DNA from: Candidatus Eiseniibacteriota bacterium
GTDB taxonomy: Bacteria > Eisenbacteria > RBG-16-71-46 > JABDJR01
Reading direction: 5' to 3'
NCBI GenBank assembly: GCA_963783375.1
Contig: CAWANH010000029.1
Location: 736,001-800,000 of the forward strand
Length of the DNA: 64,000 bases
Shown: piece by piece, positions 28,068 to 49,630 of the stretch
Position numbering within the stretch: the stretch's first letter is position 1
Layout of the letters: the number at the start of each line of letters is the position of its first letter
Position numbers and translations under genes: made by a program
Notes under the pieces: model-generated
The model's database searches: none
Told to the model about the DNA's origin: nothing
The model's input: only the letters and a program-made list of their open reading frames with translations

Positions 28068-29039
28068 TCAAGGGCGGGCGGCGAGGGAGAGCACCACCCG
28101 CCCCACCGAGCCCAGGGAGCGGGCGCTCACCGCCCCGAGGTCGTCCCGATGGGTGTGCCAGTACGGGTATTCGAAATCGATCACGTCCACCGCGGGGAGG
28201 CCGGCCTCGATGAGCGGCATGTGGTCGTCGTAGACGTAGATTCCCCCCTCGGTGGAAAAGACCTCGGGGGCCAGGGCCACTCCCCGCGACCACACCCAAT
28301 CCACGACCTGGGGGGCGCGTGAGTAGGAATAGCCCTCCACCGGAATCCGGAGATCGGCGTCCCCCACCATGTCCAGGACCACCGCGCGCCGGTAGGCTTC
28401 CAGACCCCGAGCGGCAAAACGGCGGGTCCCCCGGCAGTAACCCTCCGGATCCCCCTCCCGTCCAAGGTCCTCGCCGTCGGTGAAGAAGAGATCCACCCCC
28501 CGGGGAAGCTCCCGGCCCATCAGGTTCCGCGCCACCTCCAGAAGCACCGCGACCCCCGACGCGCCGTCGTTGGCCCCGGGAATGGGCCGGTTCCGCCGGG
28601 TGGAGTCGGGGTCCTCGTCGGCCCAGGGACGGCTGTCCCAATGCGCGACCAGGAGCAGCCGCCCGCCTCCCGGGGGTCCGAAGCGTCCCACGACGTTCAT
28701 CAGGGGCCAGCTCACGCCCTCCGAATCGGAATAGGTGAACTCGTCGCGCTCCACCCGGGCGCCGTAGCGACGCAGCTGGGCGACCAGCCACTCGCCGCAC
28801 TCCCGGTGGGCCCGCGTGCCCGGTACCCGGGGCCCGAACGCCACCTGCCGGGCCAACTTCACGAACGCGGAGTCGGCATCGAACGCGTATCCCGGATCGG
28901 GCGCGGGATCGGAGACGGTTCGGGGCGGCGCCGCGGTCGTCCCCGCCGCACCGCTCGCACCCGCCGATGCCCCGGCGCGCCCTCCGTCCCCGCCGCAGGC
29001 GGTAAGGGCCATCAGGAGCAGGAGCCATCGCGCGCGCAT
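28068..29039 (-). CDS. M28 family lipoprotein, glutaminyl cyclase-like
   Basis: Lipobox LTAC; AHWDSRP, GANDGASG, DGEDLG, LDMVG, DDH, WHT motifs of the animal-type QC/M28 fold. Confidence 0.82.
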   Translation of the reverse strand: MRARWLLLLMALTACGGDGGRAGASAGASGAAGTTAAPPRTVSDPAPDPGYAFDADSAFVKLARQVAFGPRVPGTRAHRECGEWLVAQLRRYGARVERDEFTYSDSEGVSWPLMNVVGRFGPPGGGRLLLVAHWDSRPWADEDPDSTRRNRPIPGANDGASGVAVLLEVARNLMGRELPRGVDLFFTDGEDLGREGDPEGYCRGTRRFAARGLEAYRRAVVLDMVGDADLRIPVEGYSYSRAPQVVDWVWSRGVALAPEVFSTEGGIYVYDDHMPLIEAGLPAVDVIDFEYPYWHTHRDDLGAVSARSLGSVGRVVLSLAARP

Positions 29040-32000
29040 CAGAAGTTGAATCCGGTGGTGAAGGAAATCCCCAGCGAACGCTGGGTCCAGTGCTTGGTGA
29101 GGTCGCGGTTCTGGGCGAAGTTGAGGCCGAATGTCCCGGACATGGTGCGGGTGAACTTGAGCGACGTGTTGAGGCGGAGCTGGAGGTTGTCGGTGGACCG
29201 GTCGTTGGGACTGATTCCCGAGGTGCTGCGCGTGGCGTTGGACTGCTTGCTGTAGGTCCCGTCCACGGTAAGGTCGATGTCCTTGCCGGACCCCGGCCCA
29301 CCCCGGGTGAAGCGCTTCCCGAGGGTCAGGTTGTAGCTCACCGTGGTCTGATCGCTGGTCAGTCCCGCGCTCCCCTCGCGTTGGCTCTCGGTGGTGGTGG
29401 AGCTCCGGTTGGCGGCGAAACTCGTTCGCCAGTTCCCCTTCAACGTGCCCTGGATGCTCACCAGGGGGCGCCAGTTCCGGGTGATGGAGATCGATTCGTT
29501 CGGGTTCAAGTCCGTCCCGCTCTTCCGGGTTTGCCGGCTGAAGGTGGTGGACACGGTGCGGAAATCGGTGAAGATGGTCCGGATCAGGGGCAGCCGCTTG
29601 TGAATGTCCCCCCAGTTGAACCGGATTTCCGGCCAGGTGGTGTTGTCCTCCACCCGCCCCACACCGTTGTTGGTGCGGTTCATGTCCTTCTGCTTCTGGA
29701 AGGAGAAGTCGAGCGTCACCTTGCTCAGGAGCTTGACGTTGCCGTTTCCCCGATAGGTCTGGGTCTCACCGAAGGTCTGGTTGAAGGGGGCGCGACCCAC
29801 CGGCTGGACGCTGGATCCCAACCCCACGTCCCGGGTGAGTCCAAGCCGGTAGGCCAGGGGGGCGTCTCCGTGGATCCCGGTGTACGAGCTGCGGCGGCCG
29901 AACGTGGCCGAGGTTTGGATGTCCGAGAGCACGATGTAGCGGGTGAACAGGGAGCGTAGGCGATCCCCGGTCCCCGGCCCCTTCGGCTTCTCCGGCTCTC
30001 CCCCGTGCGCGGTGTCGGCGGGGGCGGTAACCCCGCCCGGGGGCGGGGGTGCTCCGCGTCCCTGACGGTTCTGGCTCGCGGCCGGCGGGCGGGGGAGCGT
30101 TTGGGTCTCCGACGACGACCCCAGGAGCTTCTTCACCGCGTGCCCCAGGGGAAGGGTCAGGACGAGGTTCGCGTTGTTGCCGTTCGAGAGCTCGATCACC
30201 GTGCTGTCGAAGTCCGCCCGGGTCAGGTTCGGATCCGAATTCCGGTTGTAGTTGCTGCTCCACGCGAACCTCGGCCGCAACGCGCCCATCAGCGGGGGGG
30301 TGTAGTTGAAGTTCGTGCTCTGGGATTGGTGGGTCTCCCGTCCGGTGTTGAGCCCGAAGAAGGACCCCTGCGGTCGCTGCAGACGCACGATGGAACTGTC
30401 CGGTCCGAAATGGTCGTCGATCAGGTCCCGGGTGGAGTTCCAGCTCCACCCGAGGAGGCCGCCCAGTGGCTGGAAACCGGTGGAGAGGGTCAGAATCCCG
30501 GTCCGGCTCTTCGATTGGTTGGCCAAGCTGAGCATCTCTGGATTTCGTTCGTCCCGTGAGTAGTGGAACTGCTCGGACGTCCCCCCGGCCAGCCCCAGGT
30601 TGAAGCTGGTCGGCCAGGGGCGGACGCTCACCCGATTGAAAACCCGGAGGGGATGGATCTGGGAGATACCGGGGGAATAGCTGAAATTCCCGTTGACCCG
30701 CTTGGTGCTGTCTACCTGGGTCACCCCCAGGTTGTAGCTCGAGGAGGCCGACCCTCCCAGGTTCATGGCGTCCAGCGTGTAGTGCACGAGCGCCGGGCTG
30801 TAGCCCTGGGGGTCGCGGCCCAGGGTGAGCGATACGTCTTTCTGGCCCTGTTCGGTGATGTCCCGCCCGCTCCCCCCGCCCTTGAACTCCACGTCGCTGT
30901 TGGGAATGAACTTGGGAGTCTGGCGGTCCCGTTTGTAGTTGAAGCGGAGAGGCGCCCGGAGTCGCAGGGGATCGGCGAACTTGTTCAGATTCACCTGGGT
31001 TCCGAAGTTGTAGCTGAGCTGGGTGGTCCCCGAGCCGCGCGTCTGACCGAGGCGCAGGAAGTCGGCCGACGTGGTGGAGACCGTGGCCTGGAGGCTGGCC
31101 AGATCGGCCAGGGTCACGTTTACCGCGGCCCGACCGGCCACGCCCGCCTCCTTTCGCACCGCTCCCATCCGGAGCTCGTCGAACCACACCGTGCCCTTGG
31201 GGATCTCGTGGCCGGACTTGTTGCGTAGCCCGACGCTGAGTCGACGCACCCGGCTGAAGGAGGGCAGACCCCGGACGGTGACATAGAGCCCGTTCCCGAT
31301 GTCGGCGGGCGCGGAGTGGACGCTCTCCGACGCCCCGGTTCGAATGAACTTGTCGTGGCCACCGCCTCCGTAGCCTCCGGGAGGCGGTGGCGCGGAGGGC
31401 GGCCCGCCGACCAGGAACGAGTCGGCGGGAGTCCCCGGAGGCGCGTTCAGCTTGAGCCGGCTCAAATCGGTGAGCTTGAACCGGAGATCGAGCCAGTGGT
31501 CGGCGCGGAGACGGGGGTCGTCCCGGGTGAGGGTGGTGGAGATCTCGTAGTAGGACAGGGTGTCGGTGGCGGCGTTGCTGCCGAATCGGAGATAGAACTC
31601 GACGGAGTCGTCCGGCGACTCGAACTGGGGGCTCACGTAGTAGGCCACCACCTGGTAAAGGGTGTAGTCGGACGAGGTCTGGACCGGCCGGTAGGCCTGG
31701 AGCTCGTTGCCATCCCGGAAGTTCTCGTACTCCAGGGAGATGCTCTGTTCGCGTTCCTGCACGCTGTTCACCCGCTGGATCCCGAACGGCGGCTGGTAGT
31801 TCGAATTCTCCTTGTTGTTCACCACCGCGACGTTGAAGAGTTCGTCGGAGGCCAGCTCGGTGGAGGGGGCGACCTGCCAGCGGTTTCCCACCACTTCGAT
31901 GCCGGCGATCTGGATGTCCAGGGTATCCGGATCCCCCGAAGGTTGGTCGCCGACCCCCCGGAACCAGACCCTCATGTGCTGGACCGCGGTGAAGTCCACC

Positions 32001-35000
32001 GTGCCCACCTGGTTGTACACGTCGCTGAGAGGAATCCGGTAGAGCCGCCAGCCGTTGCCCGCCCGGGTGAACCTCGAATCGTCCTGGTAATCCCGGCCCA
32101 GATCCGTGAAGGCGGGGGCGGCGAGGTCGATCTGGTACTCCACATAGTTGTTGGTCTTCTGGAGAATGCCGTCCTTGTTCAGGTCCTCGGTGTCGGTCTG
32201 CTGGTTCCGCTCGGTCCCGTTGATGCCCAGGTACTTGGCCAGACGATCCTTGGTCGTGCGTTCGGGAAGGTTGGTGTTGATGGTGGTCGGGTAGCGGTCG
32301 TCCCCGGCCGGGTCCTGGGCCGGCGACGAGGCGGCAAAGCGCTGCTTCTCGGGCTGGGCCGTCTCCTTGTCGTCGGCCACCCCGTCCAAACCCAGGTCCT
32401 TGTCGTAATCCACCTGCCCGCCCAGGTTGTTCCGGTCCTCGGTGTCGAGCGTGCCGTTCGGCGGTTCGGGAGGGGTAAGGGGGTCCCACACCGCGTCCTC
32501 GCTCACCACCCCGAGATCGATCATGATCTCGCCCTTCCTCCGGTCCCGGGCATCCCGGTAGTTCTTGAAGTCGTTCACCCAGACGTCGACGTACTGGGCG
32601 GTCGAGAGATCGATCCCCCCCGTCCCGGCCAGAGACGTGACGAGCCCGCCCCAGGAACCGTTGGGACCGGGGTCCTTCTGCGGGATGTAGATCGTTTCCA
32701 GCACCGGAACCACGTCGTTCTTCTCGGTTTCAGTCTGCGCCCCCGGGGTGATGTCCCCGGCCAGCACCGTGGTGGGCGAGAACCAGAGCAGCCTTCCCCG
32801 GTCGGTGGCCAGGGGCGTGGCCTCGAAGGGAGTGGTGGACCCGGCCTGGTATCTCACCGCGGAGGCGGGGGGGCTGGAGTAGAACCAGTTGTACCGGTTC
32901 ACCCCGGCCGAGGTGACGACCTCCGCCCCCTCCATGTCGTCGATGTAGACCACGTTCCGGGTGTTGGGATCGGGGAAGGAGAGACCCAGGGCCCCGGTAA
33001 GGCTGACCTGGGAGGGGACGGTGGTGCTGACCAGCGGGAGCTTGTCCACCCACTCGGTCAGGGCCCAGGGGGTGAGGCGGAGCTGTCCCGAAAGATCCCC
33101 CACCGTGGTCTTGGTGGGCTCGTTTCCCAGCCGGGGCCGCTGCTCCGGAACTCCCCGGCTCTCGTGGAGCCAGGAGGTCGAGAAGTTGAATCTGCTGCTC
33201 GGGGTGACCTTGGTGCTCAGGCTGGCCCCCATCAGACTCCGGGATCCGGCGGTGAACGGGGAGTCGTAGTTGTAGGTGACCACCAGATCGGCCCCGGGTG
33301 CGGTCGCCCGATCGCTCTTCAGGGTGACCACTCCGGTGTCGTAGAAGATCGTATAGTCCGTGCCCCGCGTGAGCACCTCGCCGTTCAGACGGACCGTCTC
33401 CGAGTTCTCCAGGATCTGACCCAGCCCGGTGTTGAGCTGGATGGTGTTGACCGCGGTGCGGTAGCTGGTCTCGATGTTGTAGAGATGGCTCTGCTGCCAG
33501 TTGTCCCGGAGATAGTTGTAGCGGAGGTCGTAGATTCCCGGGGCCCGTTCGTCGCTCTTGAGCACGTAGGGCCGGTTCCGGCCGGGCGGGATGGGCCAGG
33601 ACCTTCCCCGGAAGCCCGACGAGCCGGAACCGTCGACGTCCACCGCGCTGGGATCGAAGGGGCGGAGGTCGGGGAAGAAGAGCACTCCGGCGGTGTAGTC
33701 GATGAACTCCGGGTCCACCTTGTTGTCCGGGGTGTAGTCCGTGGCGTCATCGTTGTTCCGCTGGTCCAGCCCGAAGATCTGGAGGTAGGGAATGGTCTTG
33801 CCGGTGGAGTCGACCAGGTCGGAGCGGTTGGTCCCGCCGATGTCCCTCACGATCTTGAGATCGAAGGTCTCGGGATCGAGGTTGGTGGCCCCCAGGCTGT
33901 AGGCGTTCCGAAGCTCCAGCCGGCGCACCGGACCCCAGACGCTCTCGTCCAGCTTCTCGGTGCCCCAGGTGCTGTTGGTGGGCCGGAGCATCTTGAGCTG
34001 GAGGGTGTCCAGCCCCGTCGTGTAGTAGGTCCCCACCTCCACGGTGTCCCCGTCCGACACCTGGAGGTAGGAGACGGCCAGGACCTGATTCTCGCTCAGC
34101 CCGTTCCTGAGTACCAGGACCGGTTCGGAGAAGTTCTGGTTGTTGAAGACGGTGTAGTCGTCCTCGGCCCGGAGGAGCTGGAAGGTGCCCTCGTAGGGAG
34201 CCTTGGTAGGGGTTTTCTGGGCGGGGTCCAGCCATACCTGGGCGGTCAGCGCTCCCTGCTCCGCGTCGTTCTGCACGACCTGGTCGTCGAGATAAACGTG
34301 GATGGCTCCCGAAGGGATCGAGGGGATTTCGGCGTAGTCCGGATCGCTCAGGAAGAAGTAGCGGGAGGGAAGGAACTCGTAGTCCTTGATCTCCTTGCTC
34401 TGTTCCTTGGCCCCGCCGGTGATCGTGGTCTGGCCGCTCTCGCCCTCCTGCCGGCTGGCGATGGCGGTCAACCCGATGTCCCCCACCTCGGCGGTGGCCT
34501 TGACCCCGAACAGGCCTTCCTGACGGGTGGAGAAGGAGACGAACTGGGTCGCCGGAAGGCTCAGGTTGGTGTTTCCCAGCTCCACCGACTTGACGATCTC
34601 GTCCTCCCCCCCTTGTAGCGGATCTTGATGGAGTTCTCCAGCGGGGTGAGGGCTTCGCTGTTCTGGGCCACGTCGATGAAGAGCTTGCTCCCGATCGTGC
34701 CCTGGAGATTGACGTTCAGGCGCTGCCGCATGTCGAGCTTCGGGAAGAGGGATCCGCCGCCTCGCTCCCCGGTCACCTGACCCACCACCCAGCTCGAGGT
34801 CCCGGAGAAGGTGATCTGCTCGCTTCCCGATACCCGGAGGTTGGGGGCCCCCTCGCCGAAGATCTTCGCGGTGAAGGGAAGCTCGAAGGGGAGGGACAGG
34901 TTCACCAGGCCCCGCTGCTGCTGGCTCAGGTTCTCCGACAATACCCGCCGGTTGCTCTCGATCCAGGCGCGCCGGAGCTGGGTCCGAAAGGTCTCGTCCG

Positions 35001-35346
35001 CGTATTCCCCGGGGGTCATGGCCAGGGGGAGGAGAATGTCGGTCCCCCCCGCCTGGTAGGTTATGAGAACGCGGTGGCGGTCGGTATCGTAGTCCACCCG
35101 GGGAGTGAGCCCGAGCCGGGCCGAACCGAGCCGGTTCCGCGGGGGGAGGGTGATCCCCAGGGTCCACTGGAGGCTCTGGAAGGGATCATCGGGGTCGAAC
35201 AGGGCGGTGGGGCCCCGATACGTGGGGGTGCGCGGAGGCGGGTCTCTGAACGACGTCCCCTGGGCCAATACGACAGGTGTCGTTTTCAGGGGGACGGCGG
35301 CGAGGGCCACCAAGAGCACAGCTGTCGCCGACAGAGCCTTAACCAC
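29039..35346 (-). CDS. sprA: SprA/Sov-like type IX secretion outer-membrane translocon (about 2100 aa), with an apparent frameshift at G7 34606-34612
   Basis: Signal peptide; QRLNVNLQGTIG...ENSIKIRYKG|GEDEIVKSVELGN...LFGVKA, YIDDME, IDLGVVSED, DTEDLNKDG, WRLYRIPL, VWFDELR; C-terminal beta-signal GFNF. Confidence 0.85.
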
Positions 35347-43748: not shown

Positions 43749-44795
43749 CTAGCGGACCACCTCGAAGGTGTGAAGGATGGAATCCACCTGCCGGAGGATG
43801 GGCACCTTGTCCTGCCCTGGGGCGAAGACCTGGCCGATCAGGAGATAGGAGCGATCCCCGCGCTGGAGGGCGTAGGCCACGAACGGACCTCCGATCACGT
43901 ACTTCTCGTTCTGCCAGATGCCGCCCCAGCGCACCGCCGGCCGTCCCTGGAACTGCACCGTCCGGCTCCGGGTGAGCGACGGCATGAAGAAATCGCCGTC
44001 GTTGTAGACCTCGAGAATGTCGGAGAGCACCGAGTCCCAGGCGGCGGGAACGAGCGGAACCTTTTCGTCGACCCAGTGGACGAGGACCAGACGCACCGGG
44101 TCGGCGGCGTTGAACTTGACGAAATCGCGCTTGGGGTCCTCGGCGGCGTAGAAGCCGTCGAGGAGGTGAAGGGTCCAGCCGTACTTTCGGGCCACCTCGG
44201 CGGTGAGTTCCGTTTCCTCCCCCAGACCGAACATGGTCTTGGTCAACCCCTCCACCACCGCATCCGAGTATTCGTACCGGAGCTCGGTGGAGTCCGCCCC
44301 GGTGAAGAGGTGCAGGAGGTCGGCATCCGACCACGCCACCGCGAAGAGGGTGGTCTGTCCGGTGGCCCACCGGTCCCGGGCCAGGAGCCGGAAGGGGGTC
44401 CGCGCCTTGATCTGGTCCCTTCCCGCCTTTCCCAGCATGCCCGGAAGATCGTGGGCCAGGGCGTCGTCCCGGGACAGATCCACGGCGACGATCTGGTTCT
44501 TCACGTACTTGTAGGTGACGAAGCGGTCGTAGGGCGGAAAGTCGAGACGGAAGGCGGGTTCGGTCCCGTTGGCCACGGTGGGGCCGGTCTGAACGGGGTA
44601 CTGATAGAGCTGCTCGATGGCGTCCGCCACCGGACCCCGGCGGGAGGTGTTCGTGAGCACCGAGACCTCGTCGTTGGCCCCCACCGCTCCCGGAGGAGTT
44701 CGTTGTCCGCATCCGGACAAGAGAACCAGAATAGTCAGGAAGAGCGCGCCGGTCCGCGGCGCGGTCGTCGCGCCGCCGCGGGTGATGATGTTCAT
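43749..44795 (-). CDS. DUF4837-like lipoprotein
   Basis: Lipobox LSGC; TEPAFRL, DRWATGQ, GIWQ...GGPF, FAPGQDK...DSILHTF pattern as recalled for this FCB family. Confidence 0.65.
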   Translation of the reverse strand: MNIITRGGATTAPRTGALFLTILVLLSGCGQRTPPGAVGANDEVSVLTNTSRRGPVADAIEQLYQYPVQTGPTVANGTEPAFRLDFPPYDRFVTYKYVKNQIVAVDLSRDDALAHDLPGMLGKAGRDQIKARTPFRLLARDRWATGQTTLFAVAWSDADLLHLFTGADSTELRYEYSDAVVEGLTKTMFGLGEETELTAEVARKYGWTLHLLDGFYAAEDPKRDFVKFNAADPVRLVLVHWVDEKVPLVPAAWDSVLSDILEVYNDGDFFMPSLTRSRTVQFQGRPAVRWGGIWQNEKYVIGGPFVAYALQRGDRSYLLIGQVFAPGQDKVPILRQVDSILHTFEVVR

Positions 44796-44810
44796 GGGGG
44801 GATTATAGGC

Positions 44811-45998
44811 TCAGCGAACGGCGGGGGCGACCCCGGCTCCGGCCCCGCCCCGGCTGCTCAGGGAGGCGTCCATCTCCGGGGTCCAGGGAACGTCGGGGGC
44901 CTGCTCCACGTCCGCATAGACCGTGGTCCGGGTGCCGCGGCGGAGGAAGCGGATGGGAATGTGCGATCCAGGGACGGTGGCCGCCACCAGGAATGAGAGG
45001 TCCTCGGGACTCTGCACGCGGGCTCCGGCATAGTCGAGGATCACGTCTCCGGGGAGAAGGCCCGCGCTGGCCGCCGGTCCCCCCTCCACCAGGCGATGGA
45101 CGATCACCCCGCGGAGCTCGCGACCCCGCGGGTGCGCCGACTCCCTCAGCTCGACCTGCACGCCGAGATAGCCGCGTTCCACGTAGCCGAGACGGATCAG
45201 CTCACGCGCGGTCTCCATGGCGTGGCCCGCGGGAAGGGCGACGGTGGCCGCGGCCGGAGAGGCGGTGGCGATTCGCCCCCGGTAGAGGAACCCGGCCACC
45301 ATGTCGGCGCCCGCGGGCACCATGGCCCGGCTCGGCTCCATCTCCACCCGACCGGAAATGAGACCCACCATCTCGCCCTCGCCGTTCAGGAGCGCGCCTC
45401 CGGTGATTCCGGGATAGACCGGGGCGGAGACCTGAACCATCTCCACGTCGCTATACCCCAGGTTGGGTCCCTGGACCAGGATCACCGACCCGAAGCTGGC
45501 GGTGGGGGCGCCCGGCGGACCCATCCCCAGCGCCACCACGAGGTCGCCGGGGAAGAGCAGGGCGTCCTCGGCCACCGGAATGGCGGGTAGGCTCAGACCC
45601 GGGCTCTCCAGGACCGCCAGATTGGTGCGTCGGTCCACGCCCAGGACCCTGGCCGGCAGGGTATCGCCGTCGGCCGCGGTGACCAGGACCTCCCGGGCCG
45701 GTCCCACCACCCCGGCACAGGTGAGGATGCGACCCCCGCCGAGGGATACTCCGGAGCCGATGATGCGGGGGCGGGTGCGTCCAATGGGGGCTCCGGAGGG
45801 ATCCTCGGTGGCACGGATCACCCGCACCAGGTAGGGCGAGGCCCCGTTCGCCACCCGGGTGACCCCGGCGGCGAGATCGGAGAAGCCCGTCCGCCCGCGG
45901 GACTCGCGCGGAACCCCGGAGCCGGCGGGACCGGCGTCGGCCACGCTCACCCGGATCGCGAGAACCGCGACCAGACCGAACCCTACCCAGCCGCGCAT
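44811..45998 (-). CDS. HtrA/DegS-like trypsin domain plus one PDZ domain, catalytic triad absent (pseudoprotease)
   Basis: Signal peptide; GSGV, LTCAGVV (His to Gly), TNLAVL (Asp to Asn), PGITGGAL (Ser to Thr); PDZ with RGYLGV and GPAASAGLLPGDVI. Confidence 0.85.
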   Translation of the reverse strand: MRGWVGFGLVAVLAIRVSVADAGPAGSGVPRESRGRTGFSDLAAGVTRVANGASPYLVRVIRATEDPSGAPIGRTRPRIIGSGVSLGGGRILTCAGVVGPAREVLVTAADGDTLPARVLGVDRRTNLAVLESPGLSLPAIPVAEDALLFPGDLVVALGMGPPGAPTASFGSVILVQGPNLGYSDVEMVQVSAPVYPGITGGALLNGEGEMVGLISGRVEMEPSRAMVPAGADMVAGFLYRGRIATASPAAATVALPAGHAMETARELIRLGYVERGYLGVQVELRESAHPRGRELRGVIVHRLVEGGPAASAGLLPGDVILDYAGARVQSPEDLSFLVAATVPGSHIPIRFLRRGTRTTVYADVEQAPDVPWTPEMDASLSSRGGAGAGVAPAVR

Positions 45999-46702
45999 CA
46001 GAACGTCACCACCACCTTGGCGGTGGGGTCGCTCCCCACGCGGGTGAGCACGGCGTCACCGCCCCCGGGGGGCTCCCGGAGGACCCAGTCCTCGAGGGCG
46101 TAGCTGTCTTGGGCCATCCCCAGCGACTGCTCCGGACCCTCGGCCTCGGTGTCGATGCCCGGATAGAGATCGGAAATGGTGGCCACCGGAGGGGTGGGCC
46201 CGAAGTCCACCGGTTGGGAGGCGGTCGCGCCGGGATTCCCGGCCGCGAGTTCGGGTGCGGGAGCCGCGGTCACGGCCCGATCGGCCCGGGTCGGACCGGT
46301 TCGAGGCTCCGGCGAACGGAACTGGGAGATCCCGAGGAAGGCCACGGCCAGGGCCGCGGCGGCGGCCAGGGGGACCCCCCACCACGCGGCGCGCCGGGAA
46401 GGCAGTGGCACCACCGGCACTTCGAGCCCGGCGGCGGGGAGGCCGTTCACCTCGGCGAGAACGCGCTGGGTGAAGTCCCCCGAGACCCGGGGGCCGGGAA
46501 CCCGGGAGAGCCGGACGAGGAGCGCCTCCATCCCGCTCACCTGGTCGCGGCAACGGGGGCAGACCGTGAGGTGGCCGTCGATGAAGCGGGTTTCAGCCGG
46601 GCTGGTTTCGGACTCGATATAGGCGGACAGGAGGGAATCGACGCGTTGGCAAGGTTTCATTCCGAGGCTCCTAGATCGTCCAGCGGCCCGCCGCCGGATC
46701 AC
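45998..46702 (-). CDS. Zinc-finger (zf-HC2/ZAS) transmembrane anti-sigma factor
   Basis: C...LSAYIE...HLTVCPRC (HxxxCxxC); one TM helix WWGVPLAAAAALAVAFLGI; C-terminus VVVTF. Start GTG 46702 (coupled) or ATG 46660. Confidence 0.88.
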   Translation of the reverse strand: MIRRRAAGRSRSLGMKPCQRVDSLLSAYIESETSPAETRFIDGHLTVCPRCRDQVSGMEALLVRLSRVPGPRVSGDFTQRVLAEVNGLPAAGLEVPVVPLPSRRAAWWGVPLAAAAALAVAFLGISQFRSPEPRTGPTRADRAVTAAPAPELAAGNPGATASQPVDFGPTPPVATISDLYPGIDTEAEGPEQSLGMAQDSYALEDWVLREPPGGGDAVLTRVGSDPTAKVVVTF

Positions 46703-47316
46703 AGCTCCGATTTCGCAATGGTCTTGAGCTTCTCCTTGAGCATGAGACGGGCCCGATTGATCCGGGAGCGCACCGTACCTCCCGGGATGTCCAGGATGTC
46801 TCCGATCTCCTCGTAGGAGAGACCTTCCAGGTCCCGGAGGATCAGCGCTTCCCGGTAGACGTCGGGCAGGCGCGCGATCGCCTTGCCCACCATCCGGCCC
46901 GTTTGATCCTGTTCCACCCGCCGATCGGTCCCGATCTGCTCGTCGTCCCGGAGCAGGGGCTCCACGGAGCCCATGACCTCGGTCAGATGGTCCAGGCTCA
47001 GAACGTTCCGCAGCCGCACCTTCCGGCGAATCTCGTTCTTGGCCAGATTCACCGCAATGGTGAAGATCCAGGTCGAGAACTTCCCGGTCTTCCGGTACCG
47101 CTCACGATGCAGATAGACCCGGACGAAGGCCTCCTGCGCGAGGTCCTCGGCCCGTTGGAAATCCCGGATGTACCGGTAGATCACGTTCTGCAGGCGGTTC
47201 TTGTAGCGATCGACGACGCAGGCGAAGGCCGTCTCGCTACCCGCCACCACGTGATCCATGAGGTCCTCATCCGAGAGGTCCTGGTAGAAGGCTCGGCTTT
47301 CCAGAGGCGCCTCCAT
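46699..47316 (-). CDS. ECF sigma factor (RpoE/SigW-like)
   Basis: AEDLAQEAFVRVY, KFSTWIFTIAVN, LSYEEIGDILDIPGGTVRSRINRAR; likely start ATG 47316. Confidence 0.95.
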   Translation of the reverse strand: MEAPLESRAFYQDLSDEDLMDHVVAGSETAFACVVDRYKNRLQNVIYRYIRDFQRAEDLAQEAFVRVYLHRERYRKTGKFSTWIFTIAVNLAKNEIRRKVRLRNVLSLDHLTEVMGSVEPLLRDDEQIGTDRRVEQDQTGRMVGKAIARLPDVYREALILRDLEGLSYEEIGDILDIPGGTVRSRINRARLMLKEKLKTIAKSEL

Positions 47317-47341
47317 CCAATCTCGCGGTACCTCGGGGCGT

Positions 47342-47368
47342 TCTACCCCGAGGGCCGGAAACGGTTCC
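47342..47368 (-). promoter_or_regulatory. Candidate ECF-dependent autoregulatory promoter
   Basis: Minus strand GGAACC-N16-GTAGA, about 25 nt upstream of ATG 47316. Confidence 0.5.
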
Positions 47369-47464: not shown

Positions 47465-48123
47465 TTGAAATTTTCCAGTCAGTTGACGTTAAGGCTCCCC
47501 GTGGCGGTCGCGGCCGCCGTGTTCCTGGCCGGGTGCTACACCGTGCTCAAGCACCCCACCACGGACCTCACCGCCGCTGACACCCACGGCGGCGACTACC
47601 GCTATTCGGATTGCGCCTCCTGCCATTCCGAGGGGTTCTCCCAGCCTCTCGTACCTGATCCCTACGGCTACACCAGTTCCTGGTATTTCCCCTACTACGG
47701 CCGACCGTGGTGGCTTCCCTACTACGATCCCGAGCCCGGCGCCCCCGGGGGCCGGTGGTCGGGGGGATCCGGCGGCGGATCCCGGACCGGGATCGCCACC
47801 GGGGACGACGAGCGGCACGTGGGAGGCCGGGGCGGCGTGCGCGCGGGCGGGGTTCCGAGCCGCCCGCCGGTCTACAATCCCGCCCCCGGAGGCGGCGGAT
47901 CCGCATCGCCCTCGGTGGGCCCGCAGACCCAGGGACTCGGGGAGCACGGACAGAGCCGGGCCGAGACGGGCCAGCAGCCCGGGCGGACCCTGAAGCCGCG
48001 CGCAATCCGCCGGCCCGACGCCACCGCAGCCGCCGCCCGCTCCCTCCACCGGCCAAGAACCAGGACGACGGCAAGAAGCAGGACACGACAAGGCCAAGCC
48101 GAAGGACGACAAACTCAAGGTAG
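47465..48123 (+). CDS. Lipoprotein with one CxxCH motif and a Tyr/Trp-rich then low-complexity tail (frameshifted)
   Basis: GGAGG before TTG; LAGC lipobox, YTVLKHP, CASCH, WYFPYYGRPWW; probable true stop TAG 48123 in another frame. Confidence 0.6.
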
Positions 48124-48130
48124 GAGAAAT

Positions 48131-49630
48131 ATGACGCGATCGAGTGACCGAGCTTCGCGGGACGAGGGCGGAAGGGCTGGGGTTCGCGCTGGCGCGCGTC
48201 CGGGGCTTTGGCCGTTGCGGGGTGCTCGGCGCTGGGGCTTTCCTGCGCCCGGGAACGGCGCAGGCCCAGGGGTCGGACACTCCGGTCGAGCTGCCGGAGA
48301 CCGACGATCTTCGGCATGGGCGCCCGGGCCATGGGCATGGGCATGGCCTACACCGCGGTGGCCGAGGACGTGACCGCGATGGCCTTCAACCCGGCCGGCC
48401 TCGCCCAGATCCGCAGGATCGAGTTCTCCGCCGGGCTGGCCTACGACGATCTCAGCAGCACCGTCACCCACTTCGCTCGCAACGACACCCCCGATCTCAC
48501 AGACCCGCCTCGACCACGCGGCCATGGCCTACCCGATCCCCACGTACCGGGGAAGCGTGGTCCTGGCGTTCGGTTTCAGCCGCGTGGCCGACTGGACACC
48601 AGCTATTTCCAGGAGGGGTTCGCCCTGCCGATGACCGCCAGGATCGCCGGGTCTCTTCCGAGTGGAGAGACTACCAACGCGAGGGGATGCGTGAACCAGT
48701 GGACGGCGGCCGGGGCCATGGACCTCTCCCCCAACCTGTCGGTCGGGCGCCACGGTGAGCTATCTCACCGGCTCCTCGCACCGAGGACTTCGCTTTGGCC
48801 CAGTACCGCGTCACGGGTACCTCCCTGGATCACTCGGACTCCCTGAGACCCGGAAGACTGGCCGTTCCTCAGACTCCAGGCAAGGCGGAACGAGGAATGA
48901 CTGGATACACAGGATCGTTCGGAATCCTCGGGCACTTCGGACCACGGCGCCGGGTCGGGGCAGCCGTCGGACTTCCCGAAAGCTGAACTACACGGGCACC
49001 GGAGCGACATACATGGAAAACAAGGAGTACGCCCGCGATCTCATTGACCGGGTCGCATTCAGCGACGACATCACGTTGCCTGCTTCCGTACGGGGCGGCG
49101 TCTCCTGGGGAACACACGGCCTGCTGCTGGCTGGCGGCCTCGGCTGGACCGACTACACCCAGATCGACTACGCGGGAAGATTCAGTTGGCTGCCCATGGT
49201 TCAGGACAGCCTTACCCTACAACGCCAAGCCTGTCTATCGTTCCGTAGCGGCCTTCAATCTCGGCGCCGAATACCAGTTCAGTTCAGCCCCGCTCCGGGT
49301 TCGAGCCGGGTTCTTCACCGAGCCCCTACCCTACAAGTTGATCGCCGCAGATCCAGACTACGTCTACCAGCAGGGCAGCCTGGATGAGTCGGTTGTCTAT
49401 CGCGATTACCCGCAAGCGAACATCGTCTCTGATCGGAAGTACTGGACTCTGGGGGCTGGCGTCCTGGTCGAGGGCGCGCTGACCTTGGACGTGGCTTACG
49501 TCCGTGGGAGTTGGGAGCGTGAAACGCCGTCGAACTACAAGAACACCACCGACTACTTTCCAACTGTCCCACTCGGGAGAAGGTGACTGAGGACAGGGTG
49601 TTCGCGACCACCACCTTCCACTTCGAGTAG
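48131..49630 (+). pseudogene. OmpP1/FadL/PorV-like outer-membrane beta-barrel with many frameshifts
   Basis: Fragments in different frames: GARAMGMGMAYTAVAEDVTAMAFNPAGL; AYPIPTYRGSVVLAFGF; WTDYTQIDY; GAEY...LRVRAGF; LDVAYV; C-terminal TFHFE stop. Confidence 0.75.

Follow-up and report, generated by a model that had tools for sequence, protein, structure and literature searches.

An HtrA-fold pseudoprotease predicted to clamp the anti-sigma tail in an extracytoplasmic function sigma operon of Candidatus Eisenbacteria

The closest described relatives of the system presented here are the sigma-E/RseA/RseB module of Escherichia coli, which works with DegS and RseP, and the AlgU/MucA/MucB/AlgW module of Pseudomonas aeruginosa. 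Both combine, as here, an extracytoplasmic function (ECF) sigma factor, a single-pass anti-sigma factor, an exported third gene product and a GGAAC-type promoter, and passages of PMC8545111 and PMC10202637 describe RseB and MucB as proteins that bind the anti-sigma factor and block its cleavage. Herein we analyzed a stretch of 64,000 nucleotides (the window; assembly GCA_963783375.1, contig CAWANH010000029.1, positions 736,001 to 800,000) from a Candidatus Eiseniibacteriota bacterium, in which four genes on the minus strand encode an ECF sigma factor, a zinc-binding anti-sigma (ZAS) factor, an HtrA-fold pseudoprotease and a DUF4837 lipoprotein (Table 1). The third protein shares the fold of DegS and AlgW with one PDZ domain, and RseP is encoded in the genome. 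The original prediction for this locus held that a catalytically dead HtrA homologue protects the anti-sigma tail through its PDZ domain, in the role of RseB. Our best reading, to which we give a probability of roughly 0.55, is that the pseudoprotease acts as an RseB-like shield that competing stress peptides would release.

The third gene keeps an intact frame with Trypsin_2 (E 8e-20) and PDZ_2 (E 3e-11) domains and an intact PDZ carboxylate-binding loop, as had been proposed. Its product is built from a short hydrophobic N-terminal stretch followed by A-D-A, which from sequence alone looks more like a cleavable signal peptide, a dead trypsin-like domain (residues ~40–273) and one PDZ domain (~274–365). 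An AlphaFold2 model from 82 sequences reached a mean confidence (pLDDT) of 88, and its best Foldseek matches were AlgW and DegS, with template modelling scores of 0.75–0.80. When aligned to solved HtrAs, Gly96, Asn126 and Thr199 fall on the positions of the catalytic His, Asp and Ser, in agreement with the claim that all three are replaced. The product scored 116.5 bits against the DegS family TIGR02038 (cut-off 422.95) and 17 bits against the MamO family NF040961 (cut-off 800) without a TauE hit, the MucB/RseB Pfam domain gave no match at E 0.1, and the fold matches are HtrA. By these membership tests, the third gene product is neither an active HtrA nor DegS, RseB or MamO.

The operon was collected from 87 genomes of 18 families in the Candidatus Eisenbacteria-type phylum, a selection out of 201 searched that took the best matches and chosen diverse families; the set excludes duplicates, two ordinary DegP loci (L030 and L066), a fragment (L110) and an unpublished genome. 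A contig search with a single-protein query had returned three loci only. The protease domain was present in 83 of the 87 loci (17 families), the other four being one cut by a contig end and three of a family termed f18. A second set of 28 genomes with low profile scores, examined for further independent losses, yielded 18 complete orthologous tails, four cut by contig ends, three paralogues only and three genomes without a match, and no second loss event was found among them. The pseudoprotease operon occurs in nearly all sampled families of the phylum. One genome (G111) holds two strong matches to the pseudoprotease profile, on contigs C99 and C178, and the latter locus (L069) was read.

None of the 83 orthologues with a protease domain retains the catalytic His. 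The Asp persists in seven, being mostly Asn or Gly elsewhere, and the Ser in 40, with T, C, A, G, V, N or Q in the other 43. The His is likewise absent from 17 of 17 neighbours in the additional low-scoring genomes and from all 39 sequences covering the site in a set of 40 close homologues, which a score gap (316 to 126 bits) sets apart; seven of the 40 keep the Asp and eight the Ser. In a tree of 93 proteins with the triad columns removed, a single branch (approximate likelihood-ratio support, SH-aLRT, 86; long branches) separated 55 His-less rows from 38 active ones, which suggests a single origin of all His-less proteins. Judged from these alignments, the loss of the triad is old and family-wide, and the possibility that orthologues would keep it did not materialize. 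In a comparison of 144 active HtrAs with 82 family members, much of the activation network proved to be lost from the family too: the Arg of loop L3 is found in 98% of the former and 20% of the latter, QTD and the GNPFG of loop LD are near-invariant in the former and eroded in the latter, and the network as a whole, which includes GNSGG, is not retained. PDZ loop and core positions are kept at levels similar to those of active HtrAs, and Gly216 is newly conserved in the family (90%). The proposed check of the ratio of nonsynonymous to synonymous substitutions gave 0.13–0.35 for the protease domain and 0.15–0.25 for the PDZ (crude pairwise estimates from four pairs, rough given the high GC), which with intact frames points to purifying selection. 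Recent decay of an ordinary HtrA was rejected for these reasons, as the His is gone family-wide; residual or altered catalysis, for which the Ser kept in nearly half of the orthologues could be cited, is scarcely credible with no His across 17 families and the Asp and Ser so widely replaced.

The partner of the pseudoprotease has the hallmarks of a ZAS factor: a HxxxCxxC zinc motif (zf-HC2, E 8e-10) in which C4, H30, C34 and C37 are invariant across 27 anti-sigma rows, one hydrophobic, transmembrane-type segment starting at residue 96, and a gene at position +1. Its outer part of ~109 residues is of low complexity and rich in Pro, Ala and Gly, and in an AlphaFold2 model of the anti-sigma factor alone pLDDT was 42–65 after residue 120, with no folded outer domain modelled. 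The KVVVTF terminus was found as described, and its terminal Phe recurs in 82 of 83 loci and in 18 of 18 further tails from the low-scoring genomes, preceded by Thr at position −1 in 58 of 83 and by I, V, M or L at position −2 in 79 of 83. A terminal Phe occurs in only 87 of 2938 coding-like open reading frames (ORFs) of the source genome (3%), and neither its recurrence here nor the absence of the His from all 83 orthologues is a matter of chance. Among other zinc-finger-like paralogues, a terminal Phe was found in zero of seven in the source genome and zero of seven in relatives. In the sole locus of the 83 without it (L003 of genome G001), a run of seven G puts the KVVVTF letters out of frame, likely through a sequencing error. 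A second, internal motif of the form Φ-Φ-L-[DE]-x-Φ lies 24–37 residues from the C-terminus in 64 of 87 tails, compared with 2.7 in shuffled ones, where the pattern was defined post hoc, after the data had been viewed.

A complex was predicted between residues 40–372 of the pseudoprotease and the last 50 residues of the anti-sigma factor, as a 1:1 pair with an 82-row alignment for each. It scored 0.64, a pass, versus 0.01 for the best control, and contacts agreed by at least 78% between runs. In the predicted complex, KVVVTF contacts the PDZ groove (residues 276–284 and 331–339), and the segment QDSYALEDWVL contacts the former catalytic sites (94–97, 126 and 194–200) together with a strand at 75–82 and residues 215–219. 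Tail residue Leu189 touches 196–199, Ala188 touches the vacated His site, and earlier residues of the motif pair with 79–81 and later ones with 216–217. Relative to the canonical HtrA substrate geometry, the tail apparently runs backwards through the dead cleft, an orientation read from the contact list only. The tail is therefore predicted to be held at two points, with the PDZ binding its C-terminus and the dead active-site cleft its internal motif. At the level of prediction, binding is supported, and the proposed grip of the PDZ on the tail finds a counterpart in the model; PDZ-only binding was judged incomplete, given the cleft contacts, the internal motif and a f18 genome that has a PDZ gene with an intact GYLGL loop and whose tail nonetheless lost its Phe.

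Family f18 comprises three genomes (G061, G062 and G088; 90–98% complete) that keep the promoter, the sigma and anti-sigma genes and the downstream aroB-accB-pilT synteny. The protease-like domain is absent from all three: two lack a third gene altogether, and the other has a PDZ-only gene. Neither the terminal Phe nor the internal motif is present in any of their anti-sigma tails. In G062, an exported PDZ-only ORF with a C-terminal helix occupies the place of the pseudoprotease (L100:777-1343, minus strand; G062:C161:21828-22394) and is likely a remnant. In a tree of the sigma factors (43 rows, four skipped) those of f18 form one clade among the orthologues, thus the co-loss is one event: protease-like domain and terminal Phe were lost together, once. 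HtrA proteins are known to act as chaperones without proteolysis, and the dead HtrA could be a stress-induced holdase of the regulon, the tail being read by another PDZ protease. Active HtrA genes indeed stand at +2 in rpoE-rseA-mucD operons and in ECF14 operons, according to passages of PMC4229105 and PMC7826278. We regard an independent chaperone as improbable, however: the eight best profile matches in f18 are triad-intact HtrAs, and the terminal Phe still went with the pseudoprotease, and the complex prediction passes against controls. In the families f14 and f15, sisters in the sigma tree, the terminal Phe is kept, the internal motif is found in zero of 13 loci and Asp or Glu stands at the His site in 13 of 13. 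All eight f15 loci (L087, L092, L094, L098, L103, L107, L108 and L109) have one Cys at the Ser site and a second one two positions ahead of the His site; the pair may form a disulfide that seals the dead cleft in a family without the internal tail motif.

With its cutting residues gone and a predicted grip on the tail, the pseudoprotease likely guards the switch instead of cutting it, and by analogy it most likely works like RseB, with the direction and the signal being proposals. The long-dead HtrA fold would clamp the unstructured outer tail, its PDZ taking up the terminal Phe and its former active site the internal motif, and thereby shield it from proteolysis. Unfolded envelope proteins or outer membrane protein (OMP) C-termini may compete for PDZ and cleft and free the tail, upon which an active HtrA or a Prc-type protease, followed by RseP, would cut the anti-sigma factor and release sigma; sigma would then turn on its own operon along with envelope genes, and freshly made pseudoprotease and anti-sigma factor would switch the response off as negative feedback. 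Outside the operon, the source genome carries genes for RseP, for a Prc-type protease and for three or more triad-intact HtrAs.

The same binding model, both tail motifs and the co-loss would be explained equally well by a positive adaptor, where the pseudoprotease presents the tail to a real protease or activates it, e.g., in mixed oligomers with one of the active HtrAs of the genome. A precedent is MamO, in the passages of PMC4794232 a degenerate HtrA needed for MamE-dependent proteolysis. We consider an adaptor unlikely, as the predicted clamp buries the motifs that a protease would read, the allosteric network for relaying activation has decayed, and co-induction from sigma's own promoter fits negative feedback, as for rseB and mucB in what PMC10202637 reports of them. 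Another alternative dispenses with the site-1 cut, so that the bound pseudoprotease is the bulk that excludes the anti-sigma factor from RseP and its release alone triggers cleavage. The outer part without a folded domain, the suggestion in PMC10202637 that RseP PDZ domains act as a size-exclusion filter, the presence of RseP and the lack of an active HtrA in the operon or with a promoter site scoring >12 all agree with such a gate. It is nevertheless quite unlikely, because E. coli RseP, in the account given in PMC10202637, processes RseA efficiently only after the site-1 cut, because ~109 tail residues would remain, and because f18 has RseP and no shield and kept the anti-sigma factor anyway.

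Several points weigh against the shield proposed here. The alignments behind the complex score were self-made, and the calibration, in which the 0.64 mark was attained for 116 of the 157 solved complexes and for 2 of the 215 mismatched pairs, holds only roughly; pLDDT of the partner was only 55–58, and a pair was folded, not a trimer. Peptide complexes of DegS, AlgW and DegP are already solved, and the pass may partly reflect likeness or memory. The internal motif is missing from 23 of 87 tails, and the tail end, [IV]-T-F, differs from the YxF of DegS-type C-terminal peptides. The co-loss in f18 is a single evolutionary event, as is the correlation of motif absence with Asp or Glu at the His site in f14 and f15, and f18 keeps its sigma/anti-sigma pair without a pseudoprotease, showing that the shield is dispensable there. 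Evidence from the regulon is modest, with 11 genome-wide promoter sites of at least 20 bits at the true spacing versus 2–5 at four wrong spacings, and the genome-wide scan found no site scoring >12 near active HtrA, RseP or Prc genes.

Within these bounds, the putative regulon is a modest fit to an envelope response. From the top 55 sites 20 downstream ORFs were picked by hand, and the 13 with Pfam hits include OmpA/Pal, YfiO/TPR, PorV, DUF4382, redoxin, a ClpC-like ATPase, PilZ, another sigma factor and a radical SAM enzyme; a loose promoter pattern run over the whole genome was uninformative. The original prediction had pointed to SprA as a source of competing OMP tails. SprA (window 29039-35185, minus strand) does end in GFNF, and nothing beyond this Phe end, shared with the 3% of ORFs given above, linked it to the operon; a specific link was rejected, which leaves SprA as no more than a neighbour within the window. 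Together with PorV-like and peptidase C25 genes at G000:C29:141176-142234 and 1325030-1329214, SprA suggests a type IX secretion-like system in the source genome. On another contig, the protease and PDZ parts of an HtrA with FGNSGG (G000:C28:1489935-1491674) fall into separate frames, and contig C6 carries a similar ORF in one piece; recurring motif matches revealed a repeat with a period of ~222 bases (G000:C28:1122553-1126771, minus strand).

Table 1 Features of the operon (window coordinates).
Feature	Position	Strand	Evidence
Predicted autoregulated ECF promoter GGAACC-N16-GTAGA	47342..47368	-	Pattern conservation, position weight matrix (PWM)
ECF sigma factor, 205 aa from ATG 47316	46699..47316	-	Pfam Sigma70_r2 and r4_2
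ZAS anti-sigma factor, 220 aa from ATG 46660	45998..46660	-	zf-HC2, hydropathy, composition
Zinc motif of anti-sigma	46550..46573	-	zf-HC2
Hydrophobic segment of anti-sigma	46328..46384	-	
Internal tail motif YALEDW	46085..46102	-	Orthologue conservation, complex contacts
C-terminal KVVVTF, predicted PDZ ligand	46001..46018	-	Terminal Phe conservation, complex contacts
HtrA-fold pseudoprotease, 395 aa	44811..45998	-	Pfam, AlphaFold2, Foldseek, triad Gly/Asn/Thr
His site, codon GGG (Gly96)	45711..45713	-	Alignment to solved HtrAs
Asp site, codon AAT (Asn126)	45621..45623	-	Alignment to solved HtrAs
Ser site, codon ACC (Thr199)	45402..45404	-	Alignment to solved HtrAs
PDZ carboxylate-binding loop GYLGV	45159..45173	-	G 90%, F/Y 92%, L 87%, G 100%, V 84% in 82 family members
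DUF4837 lipoprotein, lipobox LSGC, accessory fourth gene	43749..44795	-	Pfam E 8e-18

The sigma factor consists of Sigma70_r2 and r4_2 regions only and is preceded by a conserved −35/−10 pair, as expected of the ECF class; its SigW/RpoE-like NCBIfam matches fall below their cut-offs. The promoter was found where it had been placed. Of 58 orthologous upstream regions, 57 carry the pattern GGAAC[CT]-N15-17-GT[AT] at a corresponding distance, where 200 shuffles gave 0.19 on average, and the site has the best PWM score in the genome, the site itself being within the training set. The more likely sigma start is the ATG downstream of this promoter. Translational coupling of all three genes had been claimed, and the TGATG overlap of anti-sigma and pseudoprotease genes (45996-46000) bears this out for the second junction. 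The letters GTGA (46699-46702) exist at the first, but coupling through them was rejected as unlikely: the ATG is the more likely anti-sigma start, because a TAGGAG site precedes it, aligned orthologues begin there and a gap of 34–80 nucleotides separates sigma stop and anti-sigma start in seven of seven same-family loci. The two genes do overlap in both loci of the sister family. The fourth gene, identified as foreseen, is present in some families, and in others nothing of it lies between pseudoprotease and aroB. Divergent from the operon lies a FadL/OMPP1-like gene (window 47465-49586, plus strand) that is spread across several frames, which probably reflects frameshifts in the assembly; its homologue is syntenic in relatives.

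Outside the phylum, a profile search retrieved 147 new proteins, of which 83 keep the His, 57 carry a different residue in that column and seven are unaligned at it. For one His-less match, four of the five contigs read (L154–L158) show a sigma factor, a zinc anti-sigma factor ending in TDF or GDF and a His-less gene, in a different lineage and with a different sigma type; the fifth contig began inside the anti-sigma gene. A further HtrA gene lies 2–3 kb upstream of the module in L157 and L158. A broader but doubtful reading is an ancient multi-phylum class of switches, in which a DegS ancestor turned into a pseudoenzyme receptor, the tail serves as a tethered reverse pseudo-substrate and PDZ ligand, unfolded OMPs are sensed by competition, and the receptor would replace both DegS and RseB, the trigger being release and not a site-1 cut. 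Because databases annotate these proteins as “serine protease Do”, a phylum-wide regulatory pseudoenzyme goes unrecognized behind an incorrect label. A genuine clamp would illustrate how a sigma-E-like switch is guarded in bacteria that lack RseB, and how loss of the triad, with both peptide-binding sites kept, can convert a sensor protease into a sensor inhibitor. Two small recombinant parts, together with the named residues and the defined promoter, are enough to put the hypothesis to the test.

No description of such a pseudoprotease/anti-sigma tail system was found in the literature searched, which covered few subscription journals, and the operon apparently represents an undescribed, phylum-wide form of ECF regulation by intramembrane proteolysis in which the third gene encodes a pseudoprotease. 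The order of sigma factor, anti-sigma factor and HtrA homologue itself recurs in the autoregulated rpoE-rseA-mucD operons of Xanthomonas campestris and Stenotrophomonas maltophilia, as passages of PMC4229105 describe them, and in ECF14 sigE operons, for which PMC7826278 lists a trypsin-like peptidase at +2. The Xanthomonas and ECF14 proteins are compared here by these descriptions only; MucD of P. aeruginosa, when aligned to structure 8k2y, keeps His, Asp and Ser, whereas the present family lacks the His and its tail co-varies with the gene. MamO and LimO, according to passages of PMC4794232, are likewise built on an HtrA scaffold whose active site is degenerate, with Thr in place of the nucleophile, and play a non-catalytic role. 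MamO differs in that it retains the His and the Asp, contains a TauE domain and is metal-binding, while the present family possesses a PDZ and belongs to a sigma operon. In ECF273 and ECF277, a PDZ protein at +2 follows a single-pass anti-sigma factor and is proposed to sense unfolded OMPs; the passages of PMC7826278 on these groups mention no protease-like domain, triad loss or anti-sigma tail motif, and ECF273 is confined to Xanthomonadales. Relative to RseB and MucB, the difference lies in the third gene, which here encodes a dead DegS-like protein. And unlike in E. coli and P. aeruginosa, where the PDZ-type C-terminus is supplied by OMPs and by MucE, respectively, the ZAS-type anti-sigma factor here carries it itself.

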